Source: Gammaproteobacteria bacterium | GTDB lineage: Bacteria; Pseudomonadota; Gammaproteobacteria; UBA4575 | Length of the DNA: 64,000 nucleotides | NCBI GenBank assembly: GCA_965215055.1 | Contig: OZ244046.1 | Span: 548,233 to 612,232, forward strand | Reading direction: 5' to 3' | Shown here: piece by piece, positions 7,851-50,051 of the stretch | Position numbering within the stretch: position 1 is the first letter of the stretch | Layout: every line of letters starts with the position of its first letter | Notes under the pieces: generated by a model | Databases searched by the model: none | Told to the model about the DNA's origin: nothing | Seen by the model: only the letters and a program-made list of their open reading frames with translations | Program-made: the position numbers and the translations under genes

Positions 7851-8543
7851 CTACATGACAGTATACGACGTTGGGTCCTCAATGCCGGCATCAATGAATC
7901 CTCGCTTGCGAAAACGGCAAGCATCGCACACTCCACATGCCCTACCCTGTTCATCTGCTGCATAACAGGAAACCGTAAGTGAATAGTCTACCCCCAACTT
8001 ATCGCCCAACTGAATGATCTCAGACTTGGAAAGTGAAATCAGCGGAGTATGTATAACCAGCTCTTGTCCTTCCACCCCTGCCCTGGTAGCAAGATTTGCC
8101 ATGGATTGATACGCCTTTATATACTCTGGTCGGCAATCCGGATAGCCGGAATAGTCCACCGCATTGACACCTATGAACAGGTCCTGAATACGTAGCACCT
8201 CGGCCCATGCCAGAGCAACAGATAAAAAAACAGTGTTGCGTGCGGGCACATAGGTGACGGGTATTCCTGCCGTTACATTCTTGGGAACCCCCATACTCTC
8301 GTCTGTAAGGGCCGACCCCTTAAAAGCCGCGAGATCAATATCGAATATCTTGTGCTCAACGACGTTCAGTGCACGTGTGATTTTTTTTGCCGCTTTCAAT
8401 TCTACGCTATGGCGTTGGCCGTAACGAAAACTTAGGGCATAACAAACGTACTCTTTCTCCCGGGCAATGGCTAAAGTAGTAGCTGAATCAAGTCCCCCTG
8501 AAAGGAGAACGATTGCCTTCTTACGTTGTGACAATCGATTCAA
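7851..8543 (-). CDS. queC: 7-cyano-7-deazaguanine synthase
   Basis: [29 protein letters not shown]-terminal Cys cluster SCY...CGVCDAC. Confidence 0.96.
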
Positions 8544-36718: not shown

Positions 36719-37723
36719 CTACGCCGCACCAGTTGCAGCAATACCCAGTTGCAGCAGTTCATGCCAGGGATCACCGCCTGCACGGCCCTTTATTACGCGG
36801 TCCACCCAGGCGCATTGCTTGAGCAAATCCGGGGGACCAGGGCGTCTCCCTGCACTGCGCACACCGATACTTTGCTGGTGCATGAGGGTTTGTCGAGCCA
36901 GTCCATCACGCCTTTCCGACCTCCTGTTCCCCGGAGGCGTATTTCCCGTTTCCGTCATCTGCCTGACCTGTTCCGTAAGACCCCATAACAGCAGGGGCGG
37001 CGCGACACCCTCTCTTTTAAGCCCGTACCAGACACGGATTACTCGTGATACGTCCTTTTTCCTCACTGCATCCGTCAACTCGTTCAACGAATAACGACTG
37101 CTGTCCGTCAACGCTGCCTCTATGGCGTGCAGGTCCAGTTCTTTCGCTTGGTCAATCAAGGCAATCTTTTCAACTTCCTGCATCGCGGCAAGTAAATTTC
37201 CCTCGGCCTGCTGCGCGATCAAGGCAACAATATCATCCGTAAAGGAAAACCCCTTGGAACTCAGTGCCTGCCCGATCAGGTTCCTGGTCTCCCTTTCACT
37301 GGTTGGCCACACGCGCAGTATACCGCCAACTTTATCAACAGCCTTGGCCCATGCCGCGTTCAGGGTGTTGCGATCCATCCTCGGCGCCTGGATTAAAAGC
37401 ATGACATCCTGGTGGAGATGATCAGTAAAATTCACGATAGCCTTTGAACCTTCCGTCCCAATCTTGCTCGTCGGAAGGCGCAAATCAATTAAAACGCGCT
37501 CACTGAACAACGACAGGTTGTCTTTTGCAAATGCCAACTCGTTCCAGTCAAATTCAGGCTCGGCGAAAAACGCCTTGCGTTCAGTAAACCCCAGCTTCCT
37601 GGCACGGGCACGAAACATATCGGATGCCTGCATGTGCTGGTACGGCTCATCACCGCTAACGAGCAAAACAGGAATTGACGATCGATCGAGATGATTTTTC
37701 AGTTGCGGGAATTTGATTTGCAT
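36719..37723 (-). CDS. holA: DNA polymerase III delta subunit
   Basis: SGDEP, SLFSER, EGNLLAAMQEVEK, DRVIKG...PW; holA-proA-nadD synteny. Confidence 0.9.
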   Translation of the reverse strand: MQIKFPQLKNHLDRSSIPVLLVSGDEPYQHMQASDMFRARARKLGFTERKAFFAEPEFDWNELAFAKDNLSLFSERVLIDLRLPTSKIGTEGSKAIVNFTDHLHQDVMLLIQAPRMDRNTLNAAWAKAVDKVGGILRVWPTSERETRNLIGQALSSKGFSFTDDIVALIAQQAEGNLLAAMQEVEKIALIDQAKELDLHAIEAALTDSSRYSLNELTDAVRKKDVSRVIRVWYGLKREGVAPPLLLWGLTEQVRQMTETGNTPPGNRRSERRDGLARQTLMHQQSIGVRSAGRRPGPPDLLKQCAWVDRVIKGRAGGDPWHELLQLGIAATGAA

Positions 37724-37802: not shown

Positions 37803-38819
37803 TCACAAGAACCCCTCCCCTGCATGATCCTTGAACGAGTCCGCGTCGCGGATATACTTCATCACCGTTGCCGGATTGGTATGCCGTGTTATTTCCATAA
37901 TCTTGTCCAGACGTGCACCGTGTGCCGCGGCACTAGTTACAAAACCTGCGCGTAAAGAATGACCTGCAAGCTCCCTGGGATTTAATCCAATCGCCTCGCC
38001 ATAGTGTTTTACCAGGCGGGGAACGTCCGAGGTATGCATCGGCAGGCCACGCAGACGGTTACCACGCTTTAACGTCTGGAACAGATACCCTTGCGTGATA
38101 CCGCTTTCTTTGAGCCAGAGGCGCAGGCGCGTCATGGGCTTGATGTGCTTGCCATCCAGAACGGCCACCTTGTGCCCCTTGCCTGCCTGGTCGGTCTTGG
38201 ACTTGCGGATGTGTACAAACATTTTCTTTTCAAACAGCACGACATTGCCTTGTTTCCTGCGCACAAACTCCACGTCGCCAGTCGTGAGTGCGCAAAGTTC
38301 GGCACGCCGCAAGGCCGCAGCAAAGCCAAGCGCAAGTATCGCGGCGTCCCGCAAGCCAACCAGGCGGCGTGCAGGATCACGACTGACCGCATCGCACACT
38401 TCGAGCATTTTGATAACGTGATGCTCACGCAAGGCTTTCACCCGGCGCGGCGGCTTGCCGTGTAACCGCATCAGGCCTTTCATTACGGCCTTGACGTGTG
38501 GATGCTGGGTAGGCGAGGTCTCTCCCGCGTCCTGGTAGTACCAGTTAATCGCACTCATAAACACCTGCACTGTACTCACGGACAAGGTCTTGCCCATGCG
38601 CCAGTACCGGGAGCTTTGCCTGATGGGCTGCATTGCAGATTGAATTAAAAAATCTGCAACCTCTTCAGGCGTTGCCTTTAGTGGCTTGATACCTTCTGTT
38701 TTGCAGTAGGCCGTGAAACTCCGCCACCCCTTGGCATACGCCAAGCGCGTGTTCTCTGCCATGGAGTTCGAAAGTATCTCTGCGTGAAAGTCTTTGGTCG
38801 GATACGTGGTTCTTGTCAT
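37803..38819 (-). CDS. Cre-like site-specific tyrosine recombinase/integrase
   Basis: N-terminal NTRLAY...W..F binding domain; catalytic set RDAAIL...ALRRAEL (R), KSKTDQ (K), GHSLRAG (HxxR), TRH (H), MKY (Y); ATG 38819 after GAAGGG (ORF track starts at 38852). Confidence 0.92.
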   Translation of the reverse strand: MTRTTYPTKDFHAEILSNSMAENTRLAYAKGWRSFTAYCKTEGIKPLKATPEEVADFLIQSAMQPIRQSSRYWRMGKTLSVSTVQVFMSAINWYYQDAGETSPTQHPHVKAVMKGLMRLHGKPPRRVKALREHHVIKMLEVCDAVSRDPARRLVGLRDAAILALGFAAALRRAELCALTTGDVEFVRRKQGNVVLFEKKMFVHIRKSKTDQAGKGHKVAVLDGKHIKPMTRLRLWLKESGITQGYLFQTLKRGNRLRGLPMHTSDVPRLVKHYGEAIGLNPRELAGHSLRAGFVTSAAAHGARLDKIMEITRHTNPATVMKYIRDADSFKDHAGEGFL

Positions 38820-38905
38820 CTTGGACCCTTCTTGAAAATTGCTGGGGTCCAAAATCTAACCGCCTGAACGACACGGTTATTTCCCATCTACCGAGGAATT
38901 TTAAC

Positions 38906-38938
38906 CAGTTATAACTGTGCTTTTATTATTGACAATAA
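38906..38938. promoter_or_regulatory. Palindromes upstream of the recombinase (candidate binding/recombination sites)
   Basis: Perfect CAGTTATAACTG at 38906-38917 and TTATTG-A-CAATAA at 38926-38938. Confidence 0.35.
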
Positions 38939-39022
38939 GACAAAATAGACACTGGTCAAGAAAGGCCTTAAATCTACCAAGATTACTACCCACATTGTGC
39001 GGAAAAGAGATTAGTCTTCTGA

Positions 39023-42000
39023 CTATTGCCCCAAAGCGTGCTCGATAACCCGCCCCAGGCAATCAGGATCATCGTTTAGAAAGTAGACACCCTTTTGTTC
39101 CCATTCATTTTGTGAACGCAACTCGTCGCCGATTTCTCCAGGTGATGTAACGGACAGGACATAAGCGTGCAGATGTATGTCTGGGTCGGTCTCGCGTACC
39201 TGATTCTCGACTTCCTTGATCCCAGCGTGCAATCGTACTTTCTCGCGCGCCCTTCGACCGTATCGAACCAAACCCTTTGGATCCAGGAAAACAACATGTT
39301 GTTCGTCGCTGCTCTTCAGCCAGACAATAAAATCGGGGTAGTAGCCAAAGTCATCGAAAAACGACACGCCTCGGCTGCGTGTCAAGTTACGAATCAGGAA
39401 CAACTCCCGGTTATGCAGACGAGGGTCGCCATTCTTGGCTAGTGCCGCCAGCTTCTCGACCACTTTCTTTTCATTCTCATCCAAAGGAACCGGCTGGACC
39501 GTAACCTTGCAGTCCTTCCCTGCATACAACAGTGGCTTGTAGGCATGAACATCGGGCAGGATAACACCGAGTTTAAGACGATGGTAATCTCTTTCCTGAA
39601 CGTACGCTGCCAACTCGTGGACATCTTTGATCAGTTCGGTTTGCGTCGCGTCCACCAACAGTTCGTAAGCACCGATATTGTTTGGATCATTCTCGTCCAG
39701 TGTCACCACTTCGATCTTGTCGTGCTCCCATTGTCGCCGCTCCCTGCGCCAGAACTGATCGGCATACTCGGTAATGAGATCGATAGCCACGTCTTCCAAA
39801 GCATACACTCGTTGGAATTCAGTCACACTCAGCAATTCAGGCGGTGCGTAGAGATCGTACCATTCATCGCTTTCCAGCAAACGACCCACGGTCTCCGGCT
39901 CAATGACCAAGTTATGCCATTCTTTCTGTCGTTTTCGTATCAACAGCTTGTCATATATGCGAGTCCTATCAAAAAAGGCGACATGCTTAGGATGGAGCTT
40001 GACCGAATTTTTCTTCATCCTTCCAATCACACCATCGTCGGATGATACAGATTGTAGCCGTGAATACATATCCAGCGTCACACGGGGATGATTCTTAGCA
40101 TCAGGACCAGGCAGGACAGGCCGCTTATCCGAAGACTTGTATTTTAGGTGCTCCTTCAGCCGTATCAGCTTCAGGTTCTTCTTTGCAAAGTTCCAGGTGA
40201 CAGGTAATGGGACAACTTCCCGCTCAACAGAAATCCCTTCCCTCTTCAACAAATCCTGGAACGCCTGCATGTAGTTGGCGCGTAGTCCGAAGATGTGCAG
40301 GGTCTCCAACGCTGCAAGGTCTACACTATCTACAGGTAGTTCCGCTCCACTTTCGCGATGCCGTTTCAGGCTCATGTTCCAGCCCTTCAGGCGCACGCCA
40401 CGCCCAAACATCTGGATAATTTCCGGCCCTTCACCGACACCGACGTGCATCAGCCCCATTGTACTCACCCGCCAGGAATTCCAGCCAGCAATAAAACGGC
40501 GTGCGCCGATGACAATGTTTACCATCGAGTCCGACCGGTCCACGTCTGCAAAAAGTCGCTTTGCAAAGCCAGTTTCTCGCTCGATGTCGATGTCAGGATT
40601 AGCAGTATCGGCAAGTAGTTTGTAGAGTGCAGCTGAGTCTCCGACATTAACCACACCGAAGGGAACATTATCGGCAGTCCGCAGGTGCAATTCACCTTCA
40701 CCAGAAGTGAGATAGCGGACATGCAACTTCCCCTGTCCATGAAACAGAGTCTCGCAAATATCAGTGTAGATATTGCCTGAGTGGCCGCTCTCCAGTTGAC
40801 CAAACCGGCCAGTAAAAAAATCATGACCAGCGTTGTCGGTCAGCCCCGATTCACCGGCAAGCAGACAATCAATCATAGGACGCGCTTGCTCAGCATGAGC
40901 CAGCACCCAACCAATAAAGTCCAGAATCCGGACGACATCCGACTTGGCTTCTTGATCAGCATTGCTTGAACCCGTCACGGTCTTGCCGAGAAATACCCAC
41001 AGTGGTTTGGCCAGATTGAAATTCGTCCACTCAGCGCCCTTGTCCCGCCAGATACGACACTGCTGGTAGAAGGTCAGCAAGCAGCCAAGAAGATACATAT
41101 TGCTGTTTGCGTCTTCCATACCCTTCGGCAGGTTGGAAATTATGTAATCCTTGCCGTAGCCATCCTTGTGAAACTGACGGTAAGCGTAATCAAACAACAG
41201 ACTTTTACCGTAGGCATTCAATAACTCGGTATCTCTCTTCACTATTTGATTGAAGGTAGCTGAATATTCGAACGTGAATCCGCCACGAGATAACTCCTTG
41301 CGCCGCTCGCGCCACACCTTGCCCGATGCACCCAGGTGCCCCTCATCGACCAGCACCAAGTTGTTATCACCAAAATCCCCCACGGCTACACGTTTGATCC
41401 CCTTCTTTTCGGCCAGTTTATTAAGGTCAATAATCTCGATATGTGAAAATAGGTCGGCATTTACATCAGCCGAAAACAACCGTGCTCTCAAGCCACTTTC
41501 TCGCATTTCTCGTTCATGCTGCCCCGACATCTGCTCATTCGGTGTCAACAGAATAATGTTATTGAGTCGTCCGCCAGAACATTTCAGGTAGTGTTGGTAC
41601 TGCAGGACGTGGGCGTGCATGATGAGCGTCTTACCGGAACCCGTCGCACTCTGGAAAGCAATAGTGCGAAGATCATCTTGTGTATAGTCCGGCATGGCGT
41701 GAGCCAACTGGTTCTCGCGTTTCGCCTCGTTCAAATCGGCACAGAGTGCCTCAGAGTCGCTGAAATAACGGCTGAGGTAATGCTCGGTGAACAGCAGGGC
41801 AAGATACTGATGGGGCTTCCATCCCCGCCCATGTTCGCCGGTCATGCGCAGCTTGTGACTGTGCGCCACTATGTTCTCGTCGTATGTGGAAAACTGGTCA
41901 GACGTAACCTTGGCGCGCGCCGGGCTCAGATAGAGAGCACATGCATATTCACTCTCGCTGCCAACACCAAGCTCAGTGGGCGCATCGCGCAGCCGGGCGA

Positions 42001-42073
42001 GTATATCGGACATATCATCATAGCCAAACTCTTGACAGACGAAACGATGCAAAACGAGGCGATTTGCAAGCAC
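39023..42073 (-). CDS. res: Type III restriction enzyme Res subunit (SF2 helicase + PD-(D/E)xK nuclease)
   Basis: ATGSGKT Walker A, DEGH, YSATF, GWNSWRVS, QMFGRGVRL motif VI, YYPDFIVW...FLDPKG nuclease. Confidence 0.92.
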   Translation of the reverse strand: MLANRLVLHRFVCQEFGYDDMSDILARLRDAPTELGVGSESEYACALYLSPARAKVTSDQFSTYDENIVAHSHKLRMTGEHGRGWKPHQYLALLFTEHYLSRYFSDSEALCADLNEAKRENQLAHAMPDYTQDDLRTIAFQSATGSGKTLIMHAHVLQYQHYLKCSGGRLNNIILLTPNEQMSGQHEREMRESGLRARLFSADVNADLFSHIEIIDLNKLAEKKGIKRVAVGDFGDNNLVLVDEGHLGASGKVWRERRKELSRGGFTFEYSATFNQIVKRDTELLNAYGKSLLFDYAYRQFHKDGYGKDYIISNLPKGMEDANSNMYLLGCLLTFYQQCRIWRDKGAEWTNFNLAKPLWVFLGKTVTGSSNADQEAKSDVVRILDFIGWVLAHAEQARPMIDCLLAGESGLTDNAGHDFFTGRFGQLESGHSGNIYTDICETLFHGQGKLHVRYLTSGEGELHLRTADNVPFGVVNVGDSAALYKLLADTANPDIDIERETGFAKRLFADVDRSDSMVNIVIGARRFIAGWNSWRVSTMGLMHVGVGEGPEIIQMFGRGVRLKGWNMSLKRHRESGAELPVDSVDLAALETLHIFGLRANYMQAFQDLLKREGISVEREVVPLPVTWNFAKKNLKLIRLKEHLKYKSSDKRPVLPGPDAKNHPRVTLDMYSRLQSVSSDDGVIGRMKKNSVKLHPKHVAFFDRTRIYDKLLIRKRQKEWHNLVIEPETVGRLLESDEWYDLYAPPELLSVTEFQRVYALEDVAIDLITEYADQFWRRERRQWEHDKIEVVTLDENDPNNIGAYELLVDATQTELIKDVHELAAYVQERDYHRLKLGVILPDVHAYKPLLYAGKDCKVTVQPVPLDENEKKVVEKLAALAKNGDPRLHNRELFLIRNLTRSRGVSFFDDFGYYPDFIVWLKSSDEQHVVFLDPKGLVRYGRRAREKVRLHAGIKEVENQVRETDPDIHLHAYVLSVTSPGEIGDELRSQNEWEQKGVYFLNDDPDCLGRVIEHALGQ

Positions 42074-42075
42074 TG

Positions 42076-42972
42076 TTATTCAGTACCTGTTTTCCGTTCT
42101 TTAGCTTGCCGATATTTTTCGGAGATATAGGCGGAGAGGGACGCACAGGCCCCGTACATAAACAGGGCGTCCTCTAGGCCGACATTCGAGACATCTTCGA
42201 ACACTAGTGGGTGACGTATGCCTTTTTCAGTATTGGTATAGGCGTAAATTTTTTCAATCCCAGCTTTAAGCTGCCTATTGATAAGATTCTTCCTTTCAAG
42301 AGCATTTAACGCCTCACCAAGTGTTTTTGATTTTAGGTCAATTCGGCGAGCAACAGATTCAACCGCACCAATGCTGTCACTGGCCGAGTCTGCATACTGT
42401 TGTGCGTCGATATGCTCTGCCGCTTGACGAAACTGTGCTGTGGCACTATCCATATCTCTTTCACAGAGAGTTTTAATGGCCTGTTGTGTTGCCTCTCCAG
42501 CTTCACGGCTAAATCGCGGTCTAATGGTAGGATGCCCATTTTTATCATCCACAAAATAAGAGACGGGAACTTTATCGAAGGCATTAACAAGATCCTCACG
42601 CAACTTTTCTGAACAGCATTCATGCCGCAAAATGAATTCAATCAAGGTCAGGACTTGATGGTACTTCCCTTCCGTTATGTGTCCTTTCAAAAAGTCGTAG
42701 GACCTTCTTGGGGTATAACTTCCTATCTCATCATGAAATTTTTGAGAGATCTGAAATTCGTATGAAGTAATAATGATGCCTATGTTACTCTTTTCGTTCT
42801 TCCAAGCATCACCATAAGACGATGCGGCGATTTCTATCTCTAAGTAAAGCCATACACCCTGTCTAAATTTTTTTGGGATATGTCTCAATTGCATAGGCTT
42901 GGGCAGTGGAGCTTCGCCTTCTCGCTGTGAGAAGGTCAGCTTGTTAAAATCATCATTGTTTTTGTACGTCAT
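42076..42972 (-). CDS. AbiJ-like protein (AbiJ-NTD4-type N-terminus, putative HEPN-like C-terminus)
   Basis: TFSQREG N-terminal motif; helical C-terminus with S...AVESVAR...KTLGEAL...IYAYTN..KGIRH...DALFM..AC; recognised from memory of the family, not searched. Confidence 0.65.
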   Translation of the reverse strand: MTYKNNDDFNKLTFSQREGEAPLPKPMQLRHIPKKFRQGVWLYLEIEIAASSYGDAWKNEKSNIGIIITSYEFQISQKFHDEIGSYTPRRSYDFLKGHITEGKYHQVLTLIEFILRHECCSEKLREDLVNAFDKVPVSYFVDDKNGHPTIRPRFSREAGEATQQAIKTLCERDMDSATAQFRQAAEHIDAQQYADSASDSIGAVESVARRIDLKSKTLGEALNALERKNLINRQLKAGIEKIYAYTNTEKGIRHPLVFEDVSNVGLEDALFMYGACASLSAYISEKYRQAKERKTGTE

Positions 42973-45900
42973 TGTACCCTCTCCTCAAACATTAACTCCC
43001 GAAAGAGAGGCTCAATAGTCTCGGCAGTCCAAGTTTCATCATGTGGTCTGACAGCATTCAGGGTGTGGTCGCCGTTGGTGTAAATGAGATCAAGTGATTC
43101 AGGAAGCTGCGCCCGATTGCGACCAAACCATGCATCCAGCGTAGTGTTGTCCACTTTCTCAAGATCGCGCCAGAGTATCAGACAGCGTCTCCCCTCTGCA
43201 TCCGTGCCCGTGATGGCGAGCACACCTTCGACCCGGCGACGGGACTTGACCCGCAAGCCAATCAGGTAATTGAAGGTTTCGGGCAGGTCCACCGGAACTT
43301 CGCTACGTGCGCCTTCGCGCACCACGGAGAGGGTGTAAGCAAAGGGATTGACAAAATTCTTCCCCAGCAGACAAGGACTGGAAGCTGTCTCTACACCAAG
43401 TGCGTAGCGCAACTGATAGTCTTCTGCCAGTTTGGAGTCCGCTAGGAGATCGCCGGCAGGCGGTGTCAGTTCAAGGCTGTCCAGCGTGTCCTCATAAGAC
43501 TCCAGGCGAACATATTTGAAAAACTGTGTACTCCCTTTGCGTGAAACTGGTTTACCACCTTTCCAGCTTGGTGAATAGACGACCTTTTTCATTCGCGGTA
43601 ACAGCACTGTATCGAAGTGCTTGCCCATTTCGACCAGGAGAAACTTGCGATGGCCCTCATCTTCTCGATTGAGATTGATGACCGCATGGCCAGTTGTGCC
43701 GGAACCAGCAAAATAGTCAAGTGCGTATGAGTCTGTCCATGAGTGCGTAACACTTTTTATCAAGTATCGTATAAGTTTCTCAGGTTTGGGATTTTCAAAA
43801 ATGTCGTTATTAAAAAGATTGATAATCTGCTGAGAGGCATCTTCATTTGTCTCCATTTCATAATGAATTGGGGACAGAATATTTTTCATCTTTTTTATTT
43901 CCTTTCCTTGCTTAATATGATTGGGCCGAAAAGGAACTTTACTAATGTACATCTCATCTCCTGAAGCCAGGATTTCATCTAACTTACTTTGAGAATACCG
44001 CCACTCACCTTCAATTCGAAAAGTATCTTTATTAAATCCACTATGTACAACGACATCATCCAAGAGACGTGTAACAATTGCCCCTTTAGACATATCTTGA
44101 GCTCGATAAACCCCGTCTTTGCATCCAAATTTCACAGACTCAGCAGGAAATGTAAGGATACTGAGCGGGTTGCCCGCATTATTCAGCGGTGTAAGCTTCC
44201 CTTCTGTTGTGGTTTCAATAGAGTAGGAGGGGCTTGCCACTGCATTCCGATTGAACGCTAGGATGAAATCTGTCAGTTTTCCTATGTTTCGATGTAGAAA
44301 AGATGGCTTTTTTTTCTTTTCCCAAATAACTTCCGAGGCAAAATTTTCAGCACCATAGGTTTCTCCCATACATAGCCACGCACGAGCAGCCTCAATTTCA
44401 TCAATGGAAAAAAAGAATACGCCCGAAGATGCCTGTAGTTTCCTGGCAATTTCAGTTCGATTTACAAACATCGATATCCATGATGAGTGCTGGTAACAAT
44501 CCTTATAGATGAAGCCATCAGAACCCGTATTGTACGGTGGGTCAATGTAGATACACTGCACCTGCTCTTTATACCGTGCTTGAAGCAAGACCAACGCTTG
44601 AAAATTTTCGCCATGCACCAGCAGTCCGTTCGATTGCTCATCCAGTGACCCAGCATCAGACAACGCTGCCAACAACCTGTCAGTGAAGTCTTGGCTGAAA
44701 TGCCGCGTATCCAGTACAAGAAAAGGGTTTGATTTCAAAAAATCTACATTCAGCGGACCGGTGTAGCCCGTGTCGCCGTTTCCCAAGTCACTGGCAATCT
44801 CGTCGAGGGCGAATAACCTTGTCCATTCCTTATGTTGTGCCGTATTAGCAATGATTTCGGGATAGAGCATCTCCGGGACCCTGTCCAACGTTACACACCA
44901 GTGCGTTTCCAGCACGAATTTCTTCTTCAGCCAGAGTTGCTTCTGAAAATTCTCCAGTTGCGCCAAGAAAATGATAATTTTCTCGGCCACGTGGCGGACA
45001 GCGCGCATACGTGCCAGAGCGCGACGTAACTGAGCTGTATTCCCCAGTGCCAGATCATCAAGACTCAGTACCTCATTCTTCAGGTACAGGTCCAGTTCAC
45101 GATGCAGGAAGCCACCCAGATCCTTGTGTATGAAATAGTCGAAGCTATTCTTGGCTGTGTATGCGGACAGATGTTTATCCAGCACAGTCCGGTCTGAACT
45201 ATTCTCAGTAGGTGCGAGTGTAGCAAGCGGGGCCACCCAGTCCGGTTGCAAGACTTTCAAGATTTGTTCACGGGCTGCTTCGTTGACCTGCTCCTGTTGC
45301 CGTTTCCCTGGATACTTATTTTTTTCGCCATCCGTCAATGGACGGTGTTCGAAACGGATGATCAGATCATCGCCTTTGACAGCAATGGTGTTCTCACCAC
45401 GGGCAAGTATGAAACGACGCTGCTTACCGCTGGCTTCTTTGATGTTATCCCTTTCGTTGTCGGCATTTTCAACCTCGAAACGCACACGCCGACCGTCCCC
45501 GACCTTGAACACATAGGAGGAGTAGTTCTCCGTCGTTTTGATGTAATACTGATCAGCATTGGCCCAATGCAACTTCACCTCTTCACCATCGTAGGGGATT
45601 AGGTAGGTTGATTGCCCACCGCCAGAGTAACGGCGCAACGACATGAAGTCGCCCCCATCGTAATAGCGGGAAAAGAAATTAACGAGATGGTTATAGACAT
45701 CTGTTTCGGCTTCCGCATCTGCCCGCGCTTCGGCTAGTTGCTGATTTAGTTCAGTAACCCTTGGAGCGGTTTCAGGATCGACACCCAAATTGCGGGCGGC
45801 CACCTTCGCACCCTCAAGCTCTCGTTCCAATGCTGCCCGCTCTTCACTAGCAATCCCCGCCAATGTCGTCTTCACCTGTGGCAACAGGTCGTTATCGAGA

Positions 45901-46034
45901 AAGTCTTCGATTTCTTTTGCTTTCAGGCTCATGACCCGATACAGGCCAAAGTCCAGGTCACCGCGGTCGAGTTGGAACATCTCGCGCAACAGAGTCTTCA
46001 GCCGGTCAAATTTTTCTCCGGGTTGCGTTACCAT
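42969..46034 (-). CDS. mod: Type III R-M adenine methyltransferase Mod (beta class, long form)
   Basis: DLDFGLYR, FFSRYY..GDF, HWANADQYYIKT, IYIDPPYNTG (motif IV), TRD, DYFAGSGTTG (motif I), LESYEDTL; ATG 46034 preferred over TTG 46106. Confidence 0.93.
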   Translation of the reverse strand: MVTQPGEKFDRLKTLLREMFQLDRGDLDFGLYRVMSLKAKEIEDFLDNDLLPQVKTTLAGIASEERAALERELEGAKVAARNLGVDPETAPRVTELNQQLAEARADAEAETDVYNHLVNFFSRYYDGGDFMSLRRYSGGGQSTYLIPYDGEEVKLHWANADQYYIKTTENYSSYVFKVGDGRRVRFEVENADNERDNIKEASGKQRRFILARGENTIAVKGDDLIIRFEHRPLTDGEKNKYPGKRQQEQVNEAAREQILKVLQPDWVAPLATLAPTENSSDRTVLDKHLSAYTAKNSFDYFIHKDLGGFLHRELDLYLKNEVLSLDDLALGNTAQLRRALARMRAVRHVAEKIIIFLAQLENFQKQLWLKKKFVLETHWCVTLDRVPEMLYPEIIANTAQHKEWTRLFALDEIASDLGNGDTGYTGPLNVDFLKSNPFLVLDTRHFSQDFTDRLLAALSDAGSLDEQSNGLLVHGENFQALVLLQARYKEQVQCIYIDPPYNTGSDGFIYKDCYQHSSWISMFVNRTEIARKLQASSGVFFFSIDEIEAARAWLCMGETYGAENFASEVIWEKKKKPSFLHRNIGKLTDFILAFNRNAVASPSYSIETTTEGKLTPLNNAGNPLSILTFPAESVKFGCKDGVYRAQDMSKGAIVTRLLDDVVVHSGFNKDTFRIEGEWRYSQSKLDEILASGDEMYISKVPFRPNHIKQGKEIKKMKNILSPIHYEMETNEDASQQIINLFNNDIFENPKPEKLIRYLIKSVTHSWTDSYALDYFAGSGTTGHAVINLNREDEGHRKFLLVEMGKHFDTVLLPRMKKVVYSPSWKGGKPVSRKGSTQFFKYVRLESYEDTLDSLELTPPAGDLLADSKLAEDYQLRYALGVETASSPCLLGKNFVNPFAYTLSVVREGARSEVPVDLPETFNYLIGLRVKSRRRVEGVLAITGTDAEGRRCLILWRDLEKVDNTTLDAWFGRNRAQLPESLDLIYTNGDHTLNAVRPHDETWTAETIEPLFRELMFEERVQ

Positions 46035-46175
46035 CTCGTAGGGTTTCAGTTTATTTATGAAAGAAGCCACAGGCGATTTGGACTGGTCAATCAATCCGAT
46101 GGCCAAGCTTCATTTTTAACCAAGTTAGGCTAAAATCATAGCATAATTCATGAAGCCTTTGAGTCAGGCTCTTAA

Positions 46176-47075
46176 ATGAAACCAAACAAAATAGGTATGA
46201 TCGGCTTGGGAATTATGGGAAAGCCCATGGCCATGAACTTGCTACGGGCCGATTACAAGCTGGGTTTATACGCGCGCCGGAAAAGCTCCTTGCAGCCCTT
46301 CGAGTCGCATGACGTTGAGCAATACGAGACCCCCGCGGAATTGGCGCGGAACTGTGCGGTCACCATCACGATCGTTGCCGACAGTCCTGATGTAACGGAA
46401 GTAATTACCGGTACGGATGGCATAATTCACGGTGCTGCCGCAGGACACGTCGTGATCGACATGAGCACGATCTCCCCCGAGGTAACACGACAGCTTGCAC
46501 AACAGCTTGGTGAAAAAAATATCGGGATGCTTGACGCACCGGTATCCGGTGGAGAACAGGGCGCTATCGATGGCACTCTGTCGATCATGGTGGGCGGCAG
46601 TACCGAGGTGTTTGACCAAGCCTTGCCGATATTGCAGTGCTTGGGGAAAAACATTACTCACGTTGGTACTCACGGTGCCGGACAGGTGGCCAAGGCCTGT
46701 AACCAGATCCTGGTGGCGCAAACCATGTCGGCCGTTGCCGAGGCGTTTTTGCTGGCTGAATCTTCGGGCGTTGACCCGGGCAAGGTGCGCGAGGCTTTAC
46801 TGGGCGGTTTTGCCTACAGCAAGATACTGGAGGTTCACGGCAAACGCATGCTGGATAATGCGTATCAGCCTGGTTTCAAGGCCAAGTTGCATTACAAGGA
46901 TATGAAGATTGCGCTGAACAGCGCGAATGAAAACAAGGTCTCCATGCCCGGGGCCGAGTTGACCGCCAAGTATCTGCAAAAAATTGTTGCGCAAGGGGAT
47001 GGAGAGCTGGACTCGGCGGCAGTTGCCAAGGTGATTTTTGGTGAAGCGGTGGAGGATGTTGACCGGGACGGCTAG
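46176..47075 (+). CDS. 2-hydroxy-3-oxopropionate reductase / beta-hydroxyacid dehydrogenase family
   Basis: IGLGIMGKPMA, DMSTISP, DAPVSGG, GQVAKACNQI, PGFKAKLHYKD. Confidence 0.9.
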   Translation: MKPNKIGMIGLGIMGKPMAMNLLRADYKLGLYARRKSSLQPFESHDVEQYETPAELARNCAVTITIVADSPDVTEVITGTDGIIHGAAAGHVVIDMSTISPEVTRQLAQQLGEKNIGMLDAPVSGGEQGAIDGTLSIMVGGSTEVFDQALPILQCLGKNITHVGTHGAGQVAKACNQILVAQTMSAVAEAFLLAESSGVDPGKVREALLGGFAYSKILEVHGKRMLDNAYQPGFKAKLHYKDMKIALNSANENKVSMPGAELTAKYLQKIVAQGDGELDSAAVAKVIFGEAVEDVDRDG

Positions 47076-47572
47076 TCCTCGATCTTTTGCAGGCGGTACA
47101 GTATACGTCTTGCAGCGTCCCTCCGCATTTCATCAAGCAACTGTTGCTCTTCCTCCCTGGTGCCCAGCACGTTATCTTTGTCGAAGACAAGGTTCCGGGT
47201 CACGCTGATACTTTGCTTGCCAAGCAGGTAGCTGTTGTCAGGTTTTCTCACGTCGAAGGTAACACTCAAAGTCAGTCCATACTCCCGTACCTTGCCTTCA
47301 TTATCGAATGCGAGCACGGTCTTGGAGGTGTGCTCGCGTAACACGTTTACCAGGATTTTTGCCTGGTCTTTTTCAACCACGTTGATTTGACGCGATTCGA
47401 GGCTTTGCATGATGAGGTGAGACAATTCGGGACTTGATGAGGTGCTTTGCACCGAGACGGCGTCCAGGTCGTCCGGTAATTTTCCCGTTCCTGCCAAGTG
47501 AAACCCGCAGCCAGCCAACCCGCCGAGGAAAACCAGCATGCAGAGAATCCTGTTGATGCTCGTGTTGATCAT
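47072..47572 (-). CDS. lptE: LPS assembly lipoprotein LptE
   Basis: Lipobox LAGCGFHL, REY, EEQQLLDEMRRDAA; directly after leuS. Confidence 0.92.
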   Translation of the reverse strand: MINTSINRILCMLVFLGGLAGCGFHLAGTGKLPDDLDAVSVQSTSSSPELSHLIMQSLESRQINVVEKDQAKILVNVLREHTSKTVLAFDNEGKVREYGLTLSVTFDVRKPDNSYLLGKQSISVTRNLVFDKDNVLGTREEEQQLLDEMRRDAARRILYRLQKIED

Positions 47573-47579
47573 GAGCGGT

Positions 47580-50039
47580 TCAGGATACCACTATATTGAC
47601 CAGGCGTTGCGGTACGACGATTATTTTCACGATTTTTTTGTTTTCAATAAAGCGTTGTACGTTTTCATTACTCAAGGCAGCTTTTTCCACGTCTTCATTC
47701 CCGGCGCCTGAGGGGACATTGACGGTGGCACGTTTTTTGCCGTTTACCTGCACAACAAGACCGACAGTATCTCTTTTCAGTGCGTTAACATCTACTTCGG
47801 GCCAGGCTGCCTCGTGAACGGGTACGTCGTGCCCCAGCCGTTGCCACAGAGCATGGCATACGTGCGGCAAGACGGGCGCAAGCATCAACAGGACGGATTG
47901 CAGTGCTTCCTGGTATACGGCGCGTCCCCGGGATGATTCATCCTTGAAGCTGGTCATTGCATTTACCAGTTCCATATTTGCAGCGATCGCGGTGTTGAAC
48001 GTGTAGCGCCTGCCAATGTCATCGGTTACTTTTTTTATCGTGGCGTGGGTCTTGTGCCTCAGTCGGCCTTGTTCTTCATTCAGATCGTTCGCCTTCAAAG
48101 CATCTTTGGACACGCCGCCAGTCTCCACGTGGTTTTCAACCAGGTTCCACAGCCTGTTGATAAACCGGTGTGCCCCCTCTACCGCGGCGTCCGACCATTC
48201 CAGGGTATGATCAGGCGGTGCCGCGAACATGGCAAACAGGCGCACGGTATCCGCGCCGTACTTGTCTATCAGTTTCTCGGGGTCTACCGTGTTGCCTTTC
48301 GATTTAGACATCTTGGCACCATCTTTCAATACCATGCCCTGGGTCAAGAGGTTCACAAAAGGCTCATCAAAGCTGTACAAGCCTTCATCACGCATGAGCT
48401 TGTTGAAGAAGCGCGCGTATAGAAGATGTAATACGGCGTGCTCGATACCACCGATATACTGGTCAACCGGCATCCAGTAACGCACCCGCTCGTCCAGCAT
48501 GGAGACGTTATTGTCCACACAGCAGTAACGGGCAAAGTACCAGCTTGATTCAAAAAACGTGTCGAAGGTGTCGGTCTCCCTCGTTGCAGGACCGTTGCAC
48601 TTGGGACATGCAACCTGCGTAAACTCCGACAGGGATTTGAGCGGAGATGCCTTGTCATCAAAATGAATTTCTTCCGGCAGGCACACGGGCAGGTCTTCTT
48701 CGGGCACCGGTACCGCCCCGCACTTGTCACAGTTGATGACGGGAATAGGACAGCCCCAGTAACGCTGGCGGGATATGCCCCAGTCGCGCAACCGGTAATT
48801 GACGCGGCGTTCTCCCTTGCCTTTTTCCTCCAGTTCGGTCGCGATTGCATCAAAGGCCTGTTGCGAACTCAAGCCATCAAATTGCCGGGAATGCAGCAGC
48901 CAGCCTTCATCGACAAACGCGCCCCGTGAAATATCTACGGAGGCGTCGTCCTTGTGCGGATAAACGACCGGCTTGACAGGCAACCCGTATTGCGTCGCAA
49001 ATTCCCAGTCACGCTGATCGTGCGCAGGAACGGCCATCACCGCACCCGAACCGTATTCAATCAAAACGAAGTTGGCGATCCAGATGGGAATTTTCTCATC
49101 GGTGAGAGGATGCCGTGCATAAAGACCCGTATCGACACCATGTTTTTGCAAGGTGTTTATTTCTACTTCGGAGACCCTGGTCTGTTTGCACGTTTGCAGA
49201 AATTCCGCGATTGCCGGTGAGGACTGCGCGGCCTGGACAGCCAGCGCGTGCTCGGGGGCAACGGCGAGATAGGTTACTCCCATCAGGGTGTCGGGCCTGG
49301 TCGTGAATACGCTTAAAGGTTCCTGGTCTTCAACTTCAAAAATGACTTCCACGCCTTGTGAACGCCCGATCCAGTTGACTTGCATGGTCTTGACTTGTTC
49401 CGGCCAGCTATGCAGCCGTTCGATATCTTCCAGCAGTTCATCCGCATAGTCCGTTATCTTCAAAAACCACTGCGGAATTTCCTTGCGTTCGACGACGGCA
49501 CCCGACCTCCAGCCACGTCCGTCAATAACCTGTTCATTGGCAAGTACCGTTTGATCTACGGGGTCCCAGTTCACCACTGCCTTTTTTTTGTATACCAGGC
49601 CCTTGGCGTACAGCCTGGTAAAAAACCACTGTTCCCAGCGGTAGTATTCCGGATGGCAGGTCGCCAGTTCACGGTTCCAGTCGTAGGCAAAACCCAGTCG
49701 CTTGAGTTGCACGCGCATGTGATCGATATTTGCATAGGTCCACCTGGCAGGCGGAACCTTGTTCTCGATAGCGGCGTTTTCAGCAGGCAGGCCGAATGCA
49801 TCCCACCCCATGGGCTGCAAGACGTTTTTGCCCTGCATACGCTGGTAGCGGCTGATGACGTCGCCAATGGTGTAGTTGCGCACGTGCCCCATGTGCAGAC
49901 GCCCACTCGGGTATGGAAACATGGACAGGCAATAAAATTTTTCCAGGCGCTCATCTTCGGTTGCCTTGAATACCTGCTGCTCTTCCCACCAGGCTTGCAC
50001 GGCAGGTTCGAGTTCCCGGGGATTGTAGGAATTTCGCAT
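47580..50039 (-). CDS. leuS: Leucine--tRNA ligase
   Basis: [18 protein letters not shown] editing domain, [13 protein letters not shown]. Confidence 0.98.
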
Positions 50040-50051
50040 GTTCAATGGCCG

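Follow-up and report, generated by a model that had tools for sequence, protein, structure and literature searches.

A predicted AbiJ-NTD4 and HEPN-fold protein as candidate cargo between mod and res in a long-form type III-like restriction–modification system

Why does the gene of an AbiJ-like protein lie between the two genes of a restriction–modification (R-M) operon, and does its product depend on the enzyme that surrounds it? We address this question for a locus in a 64,000-nucleotide (nt) stretch from a Gammaproteobacteria bacterium (UBA4575; assembly GCA_965215055.1, contig OZ244046.1, positions 548,233–612,232 of the forward strand). The whole stretch is called the window, and coordinates on it are 1-based. 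In the list of open reading frames (ORFs) of the window, a methyltransferase gene (mod), a gene for a protein of 298 amino acids (aa) that we name X, and a restriction gene (res) run head to tail on the minus strand (Table 1). A precedent is offered by PrrC, an anticodon nuclease of the HEPN type whose gene lies inside the type Ic EcoprrI (hsdMSR) operon and which the R-M enzyme keeps latent. A preliminary description of the locus had proposed that X may be a guard of this kind. Our analysis points in another direction. On balance, we favor the view that X is an abortive-infection effector of the AbiJ type, self-contained in its action, and that it is cargo of a slot between the R-M genes, with which it shares expression and transfer.

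Results

X is encoded in a tightly coupled mod–X–res operon

The arrangement given in the preliminary description can be read directly from the sequence. At the mod/X junction, GAGGAGagggtacaATGAcg, a GAGGAG ribosome-binding site precedes the X start codon, whose ATG overlaps the mod TGA as ATGA. At the X/res junction, gaaTAAcaGTG, 2 nt separate the X stop codon from the GTG start of res. X had also been called visibly AT-rich, which is correct relative to the 5′ part of res (GC content of 0.40–0.45 over positions 42000–43000 compared with 0.50–0.575) but not distinctive, because the middle of mod (43600–44400; 0.38–0.43) is as AT-rich as X. Composition alone therefore tells little, and we rejected the low GC content of X as proof of recent insertion.

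X combines an AbiJ_NTD4 domain with a predicted HEPN fold

The earlier assignment of X as AbiJ-like and putatively HEPN is borne out. Its N-terminal AbiJ_NTD4 domain scores above the Pfam cut-off (Table 1) and is matched in 48 of 48 aligned homologs. From end to end, X matches the PADLOC candidate family PDC-S32 (PDLC04997, E = 5.5e-42, residues 11–288 on positions 6–282 of the 285-position profile; PDLC04996, E = 4.3e-34), and Pfam also gives a sub-threshold match to DUF7014 at residues 171–244. In an AlphaFold2 model of X, with a predicted local distance difference test score (pLDDT) of 80.8, residues 170–291 form a four-helix up-and-down bundle. When this model was searched with VIA-align against 48,161 PDB representatives, the top seven matches were all HEPN structures (2hsb, Z 10.8; 1ufb, 10.7; sacsin HEPN 3o10, 10.3; 4nqf, 9.4; 1wol, 9.3; 3mfn, 8.6; 2jpu, 8.1), the best of them aligning 114 residues at a root-mean-square deviation of 3.6. 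The C-terminal HEPN domain of AbiA (7.8), LsoA (7.4) and AbiV (6.7) rank lower.

Helical bundles inflate Z-scores, and a Z under ~13 may reflect a common arrangement of helices. Moreover, a Foldseek search of the PDB with the whole X model, a check proposed in the preliminary description, returned nothing at E ≤ 1e-3 and HEPN entries only at E ~1–2. For both reasons, we sought independent sequence evidence. Five NCBIfam STM4504/CBY_0614 proteins were taken from genomes, aligned and compared with the X profile by hhalign; CBY_0614 is the type example of AbiJ-NTD4 (Anantharaman 2013, PMC3710099). The profiles match with a probability of 96.1% and E = 3e-9 over 221 columns, which span NTD4, a β-hairpin and the first HEPN helices. 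NCBIfam gives nothing near its cut-offs for X (NF046078, E = 0.082, 12 bits compared with a cut-off of 150), and the X profile has no meaningful match among PDB sequences. X has the NTD4 of AbiJ proteins but neither a significant match to Pfam Abi_C nor the R-polar-x(2–6)-H motif of that domain, although the hhalign result supports homology of the domain as far as the motif. The NTD4 match, the HEPN-fold model and the hhalign homology together place X, as judged from sequence comparison and modeling, in the AbiJ-NTD4 + HEPN lineage as a divergent protein whose AbiJ_NTD4 domain is presumed to be the sensor or regulator. The X family comprises 2535 representative clusters at E ≤ 1e-3, a number that falls to 808 at E ≤ 1e-10 and to 113 at E ≤ 1e-30.

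Separately, the helical core of AbiJ_NTD4 (residues 32–136; 42565–42879) shows weak death-fold matches (CARD, PYD and DED) at Z 5.5–6.2, within the chance range for helical bundles. A role for X as a C-protein-like controller was considered and rejected, because its helix-turn-helix (HTH) matches do not reach threshold and fall within the HEPN bundle.

An invariant Arg-His dyad occupies the place of the canonical HEPN motif

The N-terminal and C-terminal motifs first noted as TFSQR and YAYTN..KGIRH are present in the translation, as LTFSQREG at residues 12–19 and YAYTNTEKGIRHPL at residues 243–256. Among 78 diverse representatives that are 29–46% identical to the window X, R253 and H254 are invariant in all 78, and F14 is the only other invariant column. 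The family consensus is Y-x-Y-T-[NS]-x-E-x-G-[IV]-R-H, compared with V-R-N-x4-H-G-Q-G in the alignment of five members of the canonical STM4504/CBY_0614 family. An extended hhalign alignment of low confidence pairs R253 with the Arg of the canonical motif and H254 with the polar residue that comes next. The same 78 representatives have no conserved His 4–6 residues after R253 and no conserved Arg 4–6 residues before H254, so X lacks the Rx4–6H motif of HEPN domains, and the reservation voiced about this motif in the preliminary description was well founded. The second HEPN motif, Ex3[KR], is present: E205 is at least 90% conserved among X homologs and aligns with FESxxK of the canonical AbiJ-NTD4 family. 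We read the RH dyad plus Ex3R in an HEPN fold as a putative active site that is remodeled but functional.

X occurs both inside and outside type III-like operons

A scan of one genome per species yielded 316 X relatives, the best 80 of which gave 79 loci from many phyla. Mod and res genes within 8 kb of X were detected by tblastn with the window Mod and Res. X lies between mod and res in 33 of the 79 loci, either tightly (20 loci, in which the matched stretches are 7–41 nt apart toward mod and −15 to 108 nt apart toward res) or together with extra genes (13 loci). Three more loci are partial or rearranged (L004, L032 and L037). The neighborhood survey thus reveals the enrichment between mod and res that had been anticipated, and the recurrence of this gene order in many phyla argues that the arrangement is not due to chance. 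At one of these three, L004 from Binatia, there are two X paralogs (L004:3871–4827 and L004:8001–8909); the copy in the slot is 36% and the copy just after res 54% identical to the window X.

The remaining 43 loci have no such R-M genes within 8 kb. Eight of these X genes (L052, L054, L061, L063, L064, L065, L067 and L078) reside in Hma systems, beside the DUF1156 methylase HmaB. Elsewhere in this class, X neighbors defense or toxin–antitoxin genes, for example Type_ISP_C, a type I S-like gene with ThsB-TIR, PDC-S06, PDC-M02B, PDC-M07A, PD-Lambda-2_B, an AbiLi-like gene, Schlafen or HTH-M78, and several loci have only housekeeping neighbors (such as TENA, succinate dehydrogenase, hydantoinase and RNase P protein). 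Short remnants of mod or res remain at four loci of the class (L007, L031, L034 and L062), which are, on this evidence, relics of embedded copies.

The mod–res junction is a slot with diverse cargo

To avoid selection by X, we chose 80 metagenome loci (L089–L168) by Res alone. The end of mod and the start of res could both be placed in 65 of them, and the spacing between the two is bimodal: 35 junctions have a gap of at most 100 nt, often a 7-nt overlap, 30 hold 433–4079 nt, and none falls between. After duplicates were collapsed, 32 junctions without and 27 with an insert remained. Because 35 of the 65 junctions have no insert at all, the R-M system evidently does not need X. X itself occurs in only three of the 80 loci, all of them in the clade of near relatives (Res identity of at least 64%), where three of five determinable loci have it.

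The inserts other than X are all or nearly all co-directional with mod and res. They include ABC-TOPRIM proteins matching HEC-04, in about eight loci, as well as HEC-03A/B, Septu PtuA/B together with PDC-M02A/B, and KilA-N (PDC-S22); MNT-HepT and RelE-HTH represent toxin–antitoxin pairs; and HD/dGTPase-like and proteasome-like genes, each with a partner, GGACT and HTH-M78 also occur. Where the slot holds further genes beside X, these include HigB-HTH, MazF and a DUF4145/PD-T7-4 HEPN gene, as well as ORFs of 167, 285, 325 and 493 aa that have no Pfam or PADLOC match and are candidates for unknown defense genes (Table 1).

X does not closely track the surrounding enzyme

A rapid maximum-likelihood tree computed from 80 X proteins has three well-supported clades and interleaves embedded and free contexts. 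The clade that contains the window has 25 rows, 12 of them embedded and 13 not; a clade of 39 rows has 25 embedded and 14 not; and a clade of 16 rows includes all eight copies embedded in Hma. The label ‘type III-embedded’ changes at least six times on starred branches and 20 times by parsimony. Across 34 embedded pairs, median pairwise identity is 65% for Res and 48% for X, and the two distance matrices are weakly correlated (Mantel r 0.31, Spearman 0.16); no permutation out of 2000 reached the observed r, as is expected from a few close relatives. Two deep X clades, ~36–42% and ~50–64% identical to the window X, pair with Res proteins that are equally related (~62–71% identical), which argues against a co-evolving interface. 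A complex prediction for X with Res residues 1–700 (score 0.00, mark 0.32) gave no verdict and is used neither way.

These results bear directly on the guard model of the preliminary description, in which X would be latent on the Mod/Res complex and would fire as a back-up nuclease when phage anti-restriction disables the R-M system. Embedding and translational coupling of X between mod and res, repeated across phyla, would suit such a guard. HEPN genes in R-M operons have been proposed to work in this way (PMC3710099), R-M guardians are an accepted class (PMC12707154), and the position of X beside a methylase in Hma too might make ‘next to a modification enzyme’ the common theme. Like PrrC, X would be an HEPN-type effector embedded in the same orientation in an R-M operon, with a similar logic of layered defense. 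However, PrrC has an ABC ATPase at its N terminus, carries an HEPN anticodon nuclease with a canonical motif at its C terminus and is described as almost exclusively embedded (Payne 2024), whereas X has AbiJ_NTD4 in place of the ATPase, an RH dyad and a type III-like host, and is often free-standing: more than half of its loci lack this R-M system, and eight of those belong to a different one, Hma. The interleaved clades, the pairing of both deep X clades with equally related Res, and the occurrence of self-contained cargo such as toxin–antitoxin pairs and Septu in the same slot likewise stand against a dedicated latch, as does, weakly, our failure to find fusions of X with Res or Mod or longer forms of X. 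In addition, R-M operons more often contain AbiJ proteins that lack N-terminal domains, and those that bear such a domain are expected to be self-regulated instead of R-M-coupled (PMC3710099). On context, then, the guard mechanism is not supported; we regard it as unlikely, and as less likely than autonomous cargo.

Duplicated gene ends flank some X genes

Four loci (L001, L008, L026 and L035) carry a separate copy of the last 27–33 mod codons (~100 nt) directly upstream of X despite an intervening gene, so the mod 3′ end is present two or three times. In L035, L007 and L034, all from Nitrospirales, the sequence immediately upstream of X joins a res-5′ stub to a mod-3′ stub. We suggest, only as a lead, that these junctions could fit insertion of a ‘mod-3′–cargo–res-5′’ unit by crossover in the shared ends, or collapse of tandem systems. 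The cases are few, and a retained mod-3′ stub might only reflect a ribosome-binding region of X inside mod.

Four metagenome runs (X1, X5, X6 and X7) compared with window positions 38800–46300 contain identical contigs plus deeper mod/res blocks at least 80% alike from other organisms; several related systems of the long type III-like family thus coexist in one community. Joints in the reads that skip X have undefined content and are not used as evidence of swapping.

The host is a long-form type III-like system on a small island

Mod has the DPPY and FAGSG motifs reported earlier, as IDPPYNTG followed ~270 aa later by FAGSGTTG, and this order of motif IV before motif I is that of β-class methyltransferases. 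It matches Pfam N6_N4_Mtase (E = 1.1e-30) and PADLOC MTase_III (E = 2.7e-206), and the only solved structures that it matches in sequence are those of type III Mod subunits (6k0w, EcoP15I 4zcf and Mbo45V 7dsu). An N-terminal extension of ~490 aa (residues 1–490; 44640–46106) has no Pfam domain; only the PADLOC long MTase_III profile PDLC03646 covers it. An ATG at ~46034, corresponding to M25, is as plausible a start as the TTG, given that homologs align from residue ~20–31. Res matches Pfam ResIII (E = 7.2e-7) and PADLOC REase_III (E = 4.4e-148), and its helicase and PD-(D/E)xK motifs (G145–T149, GSGKT; D243–H246, DEGH; P913-D914; D931-P932-K933) are invariant in 14 of 14 aligned homologs. The ~130 aa before helicase motif I are also highly conserved. 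Res has no sequence match among solved chains, including EcoP15I Res. Both proteins therefore have the motif sets expected of type III enzymes, and the order of mod and then res is kept around the 298-aa gene. As the solved relatives of Mod are type III Mods only and Res has no solved sequence relative, the sequences place the pair in a long-form type III-like system that is no close relative of EcoP15I.

The R-M operon and a tyrosine recombinase, which is probably the mobility gene, make up an island of ~8.4 kb between holA on one side and a dehydrogenase gene, lptE and leuS on the other (the lptE–leuS flank lies within 46176–50045). We found no att-like direct repeats flanking the island, and promoter and terminator scans gave nothing above chance there (8 promoter-like sites compared with 8.4 expected). 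The host genome is a single contig of 1.68 Mb, in which X is present in one copy.

Table 1 Positions of features in the window and at homologous loci
Feature	Position	Strand	Description
mod	42969..46106	minus	ORF, 1045 aa from TTG; type III-like β-class N6/N4 DNA methyltransferase
X	42076..42972	minus	ORF, 298 aa; AbiJ_NTD4 + HEPN-fold protein (predicted), PADLOC candidate family PDC-S32
res	39023..42073	minus	ORF, 1016 aa, GTG start; superfamily 2 (SF2) helicase + C-terminal PD-(D/E)xK nuclease
Ribosome-binding site of X (GAGGAG)	42981–42986	minus	Within mod 3′ end, 8 nt upstream of X ATG (42972)
AbiJ_NTD4 domain of X (residues 13–117)	42622..42936	minus	Pfam PF18863, E = 8.1e-11, 43 bits; cut-off 34
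HEPN-fold domain of X (residues 170–291)	42100..42465	minus	Structural alignment (VIA-align)
E205-S-V-A-R209	42346..42360	minus	Fits second HEPN motif Ex3[KR]
R253-H254 dyad	42211..42216	minus	Invariant family core at place of canonical R-N-x4-H
Tyrosine recombinase	37803..38852	minus	Directly downstream of res; Pfam Phage_integrase, E = 2.8e-15
holA	36719–37723		Flank of island on recombinase side
3-Hydroxyisobutyrate-dehydrogenase-like gene	46176–47075		Converges on lptE with 4-nt overlap
mod-3′ stubs before X	L001:7888–7986; L008:7912–7992; L026:7897–7992; L035:6762–6848 and 7897–7992		
Stub regions before X	L007:7729–7992; L034:7704–7992		
167-aa slot ORFs	L025:8957–9460; L007:8946–9449		Same length in both loci
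285-aa slot ORFs	L026:6998–7855; L035:5858–6715		Same length in both loci
493-aa slot ORFs	L030:10054–11535; L035:4174–5655		Same length in both loci
325-aa slot ORF	L030:8976–9953		One locus

Discussion

The free-standing and Hma-embedded loci, the changes of context on the X tree, the weak tracking of Res and the other cargo of the slot all argue that X is autonomous cargo. We propose that the host of X is a long-form type III-like R-M system with an accessory slot between its mod and res. There, X would share transcription and translational coupling with Mod and Res and would be transferred horizontally together with them. AbiJ_NTD4 may detect infection and otherwise restrain the effector, and the C-terminal HEPN-derived domain may be an RNase built on R253-H254 and E205-x3-R209. 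Defense would then be layered: the R-M enzyme would cut unmodified DNA, and X would kill or arrest cells in which infection goes on. The link between X and the R-M system would be genetic, by shared expression, shared transfer and perhaps cassette exchange, with no specific protein–protein latch.

Several observations weigh against this proposal. Because the canonical Rx4–6H motif is absent, nuclease activity is unproven, and the loop that bears the RH dyad (residues 246–262) is modeled with the lowest confidence of any part of X, at pLDDT below 50. The Pfam Abi_C domain was found in 0 of 48 X homologs at E ≤ 0.01, and a search by family name found no published experiment or paper on PDC-S32. 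The recurrent tight position of X between mod and res (33 of 79 loci) would also fit functional dependence on Mod and Res, as would a mod-3′ stub kept at loci without mod. The presence of relics among the 43 loci without R-M genes means that persistence there may reflect decay rather than autonomy. Finally, the 79 loci derive from the best 80 of 316 relatives and nearly all come from metagenome-assembled genomes.

Could X instead serve the island more than its host, as a toxin-like addiction module that stabilizes the island or hitch-hikes on it and has little direct antiviral role? The slot does hold toxin–antitoxin pairs (RelE-HTH, HigB-HTH, MazF, MNT-HepT and DUF4258), the island has its own tyrosine recombinase, and linked transfer has been described as a selfish benefit of embedding (Payne 2024). 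However, no separate antitoxin gene adjoins X in the window, PDC-S32 was flagged by a method based on defense context, and the relatives AbiJ and SadR defend against phages. We consider this explanation improbable. Slightly more doubtful still is a non-catalytic X that has ceased to cleave RNA and instead binds nucleic acid or controls how Mod and Res are expressed or how they act, after the example of MtlR, an HEPN protein that is a regulator without catalysis: the lack of Rx4–6H, the view that motif-less HEPN families are non-catalytic binders (PMC3710099) and weak winged-HTH-like matches at residues 203–252 (GntR, MarR and HxlR; E ~0.05–0.07) would suit it, but the invariant Arg-His pair with a conserved Ex3R in an HEPN fold resembles an active site, the winged-HTH matches are far below cut-offs and inside the HEPN bundle, and many of these R-M systems have nothing in the slot.

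A more far-reaching combination of ideas would treat the mod–res junction as a dedicated, recombinase-free cassette slot, X as a new catalytic HEPN variant and its firing as tied to failure of the surrounding R-M system. Cargo units would be flanked by conserved gene ends, ~100 nt from the 3′ end of mod and ~100–250 nt from the 5′ end of res, and homologous recombination would exchange or stack them among related R-M systems of different genomes. By analogy, such a slot might be integron-like, with the R-M genes themselves as its arms, and X might be its commonest occupant in the window clade, with the R and H of the canonical motif collapsed into an invariant dyad. We put this combination forward tentatively and consider it unlikely.

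If X is autonomous cargo, how does it compare with systems already described? Among the closest known systems are the AbiJ/Abi_C HEPN RNases, which include the STM4504/CBY_0614 family and SadR and share with X the two-domain plan, homology from NTD4 to the first HEPN helices, and the Ex3[KR] motif. SadR from Staphylococcus aureus, an Abi_C protein, has the motif RNEYGDAH, in which R, N and H are all essential for RNase activity and defense, so that Abi_C relatives include proven single-gene RNase defenses (PMC13590631). X differs from SadR in its RH dyad, and from the STM4504/CBY_0614 family in having G-[IV]-R-H without a conserved downstream His in place of V-R-N-x4-H-G-Q-G. On our reading, X may be toxic to its host when triggered.

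The general idea that such genes back up R-M systems is already in print. Sixteen HEPN clades have been linked to R-M, with the PrrC analogy proposed for them (Anantharaman 2013, PMC3710099), and ‘guilt by embedding’ yielded the PDC families in 2024, when Hma, BREX, DISARM and type I R-M were reported to carry embedded defense genes, in the same orientation in 96.7% of cases, from which the PDC models were built (Payne 2024, bioRxiv 10.1101/2024.01.29.577857). Our findings agree with that work in that X matches PDC-S32 and sits in Hma, and in that HEC-04 and HEC-03 occupy the type III slot, but type III is not among its hosts in the portions available to us, and its main text does not discuss cassette entry (the word ‘recombination’ occurs 0 times there). 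Type III R-M can also provide an abortive back-up response to anti-restriction by itself: EcoR22I triggers cell death on sensing Ocr (Silas 2023 preprint), and there mod and res alone suffice, with no nested gene. Within the literature on AbiJ and on embedded genes in type III R-M, in the portions available to us, we found no account of any gene inserted between mod and res in a type III system. The new points are the type III-like host for embedded defense, an RH variant of the HEPN site that is invariant across the aligned sequences, and hints of cassette exchange through the ends of R-M genes.

There are several implications for how bacteria assemble layered defenses. First, back-up effectors nested in R-M, BREX, DISARM and Hma are an established theme in which, in the accounts cited here, type III systems are not treated as hosts. 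Second, X lends itself to a clean test of how much remodeling the HEPN active site allows, with RH in place of Rx4–6H. Third, the duplicated mod-3′ stubs suggest a concrete, testable route by which embedded genes might move in and out of their hosts. Finally, because cargo occupies one fixed slot in 30 of 65 loci of a family that spans phyla, the mod–res junction would be a cheap place to seek new defense genes.

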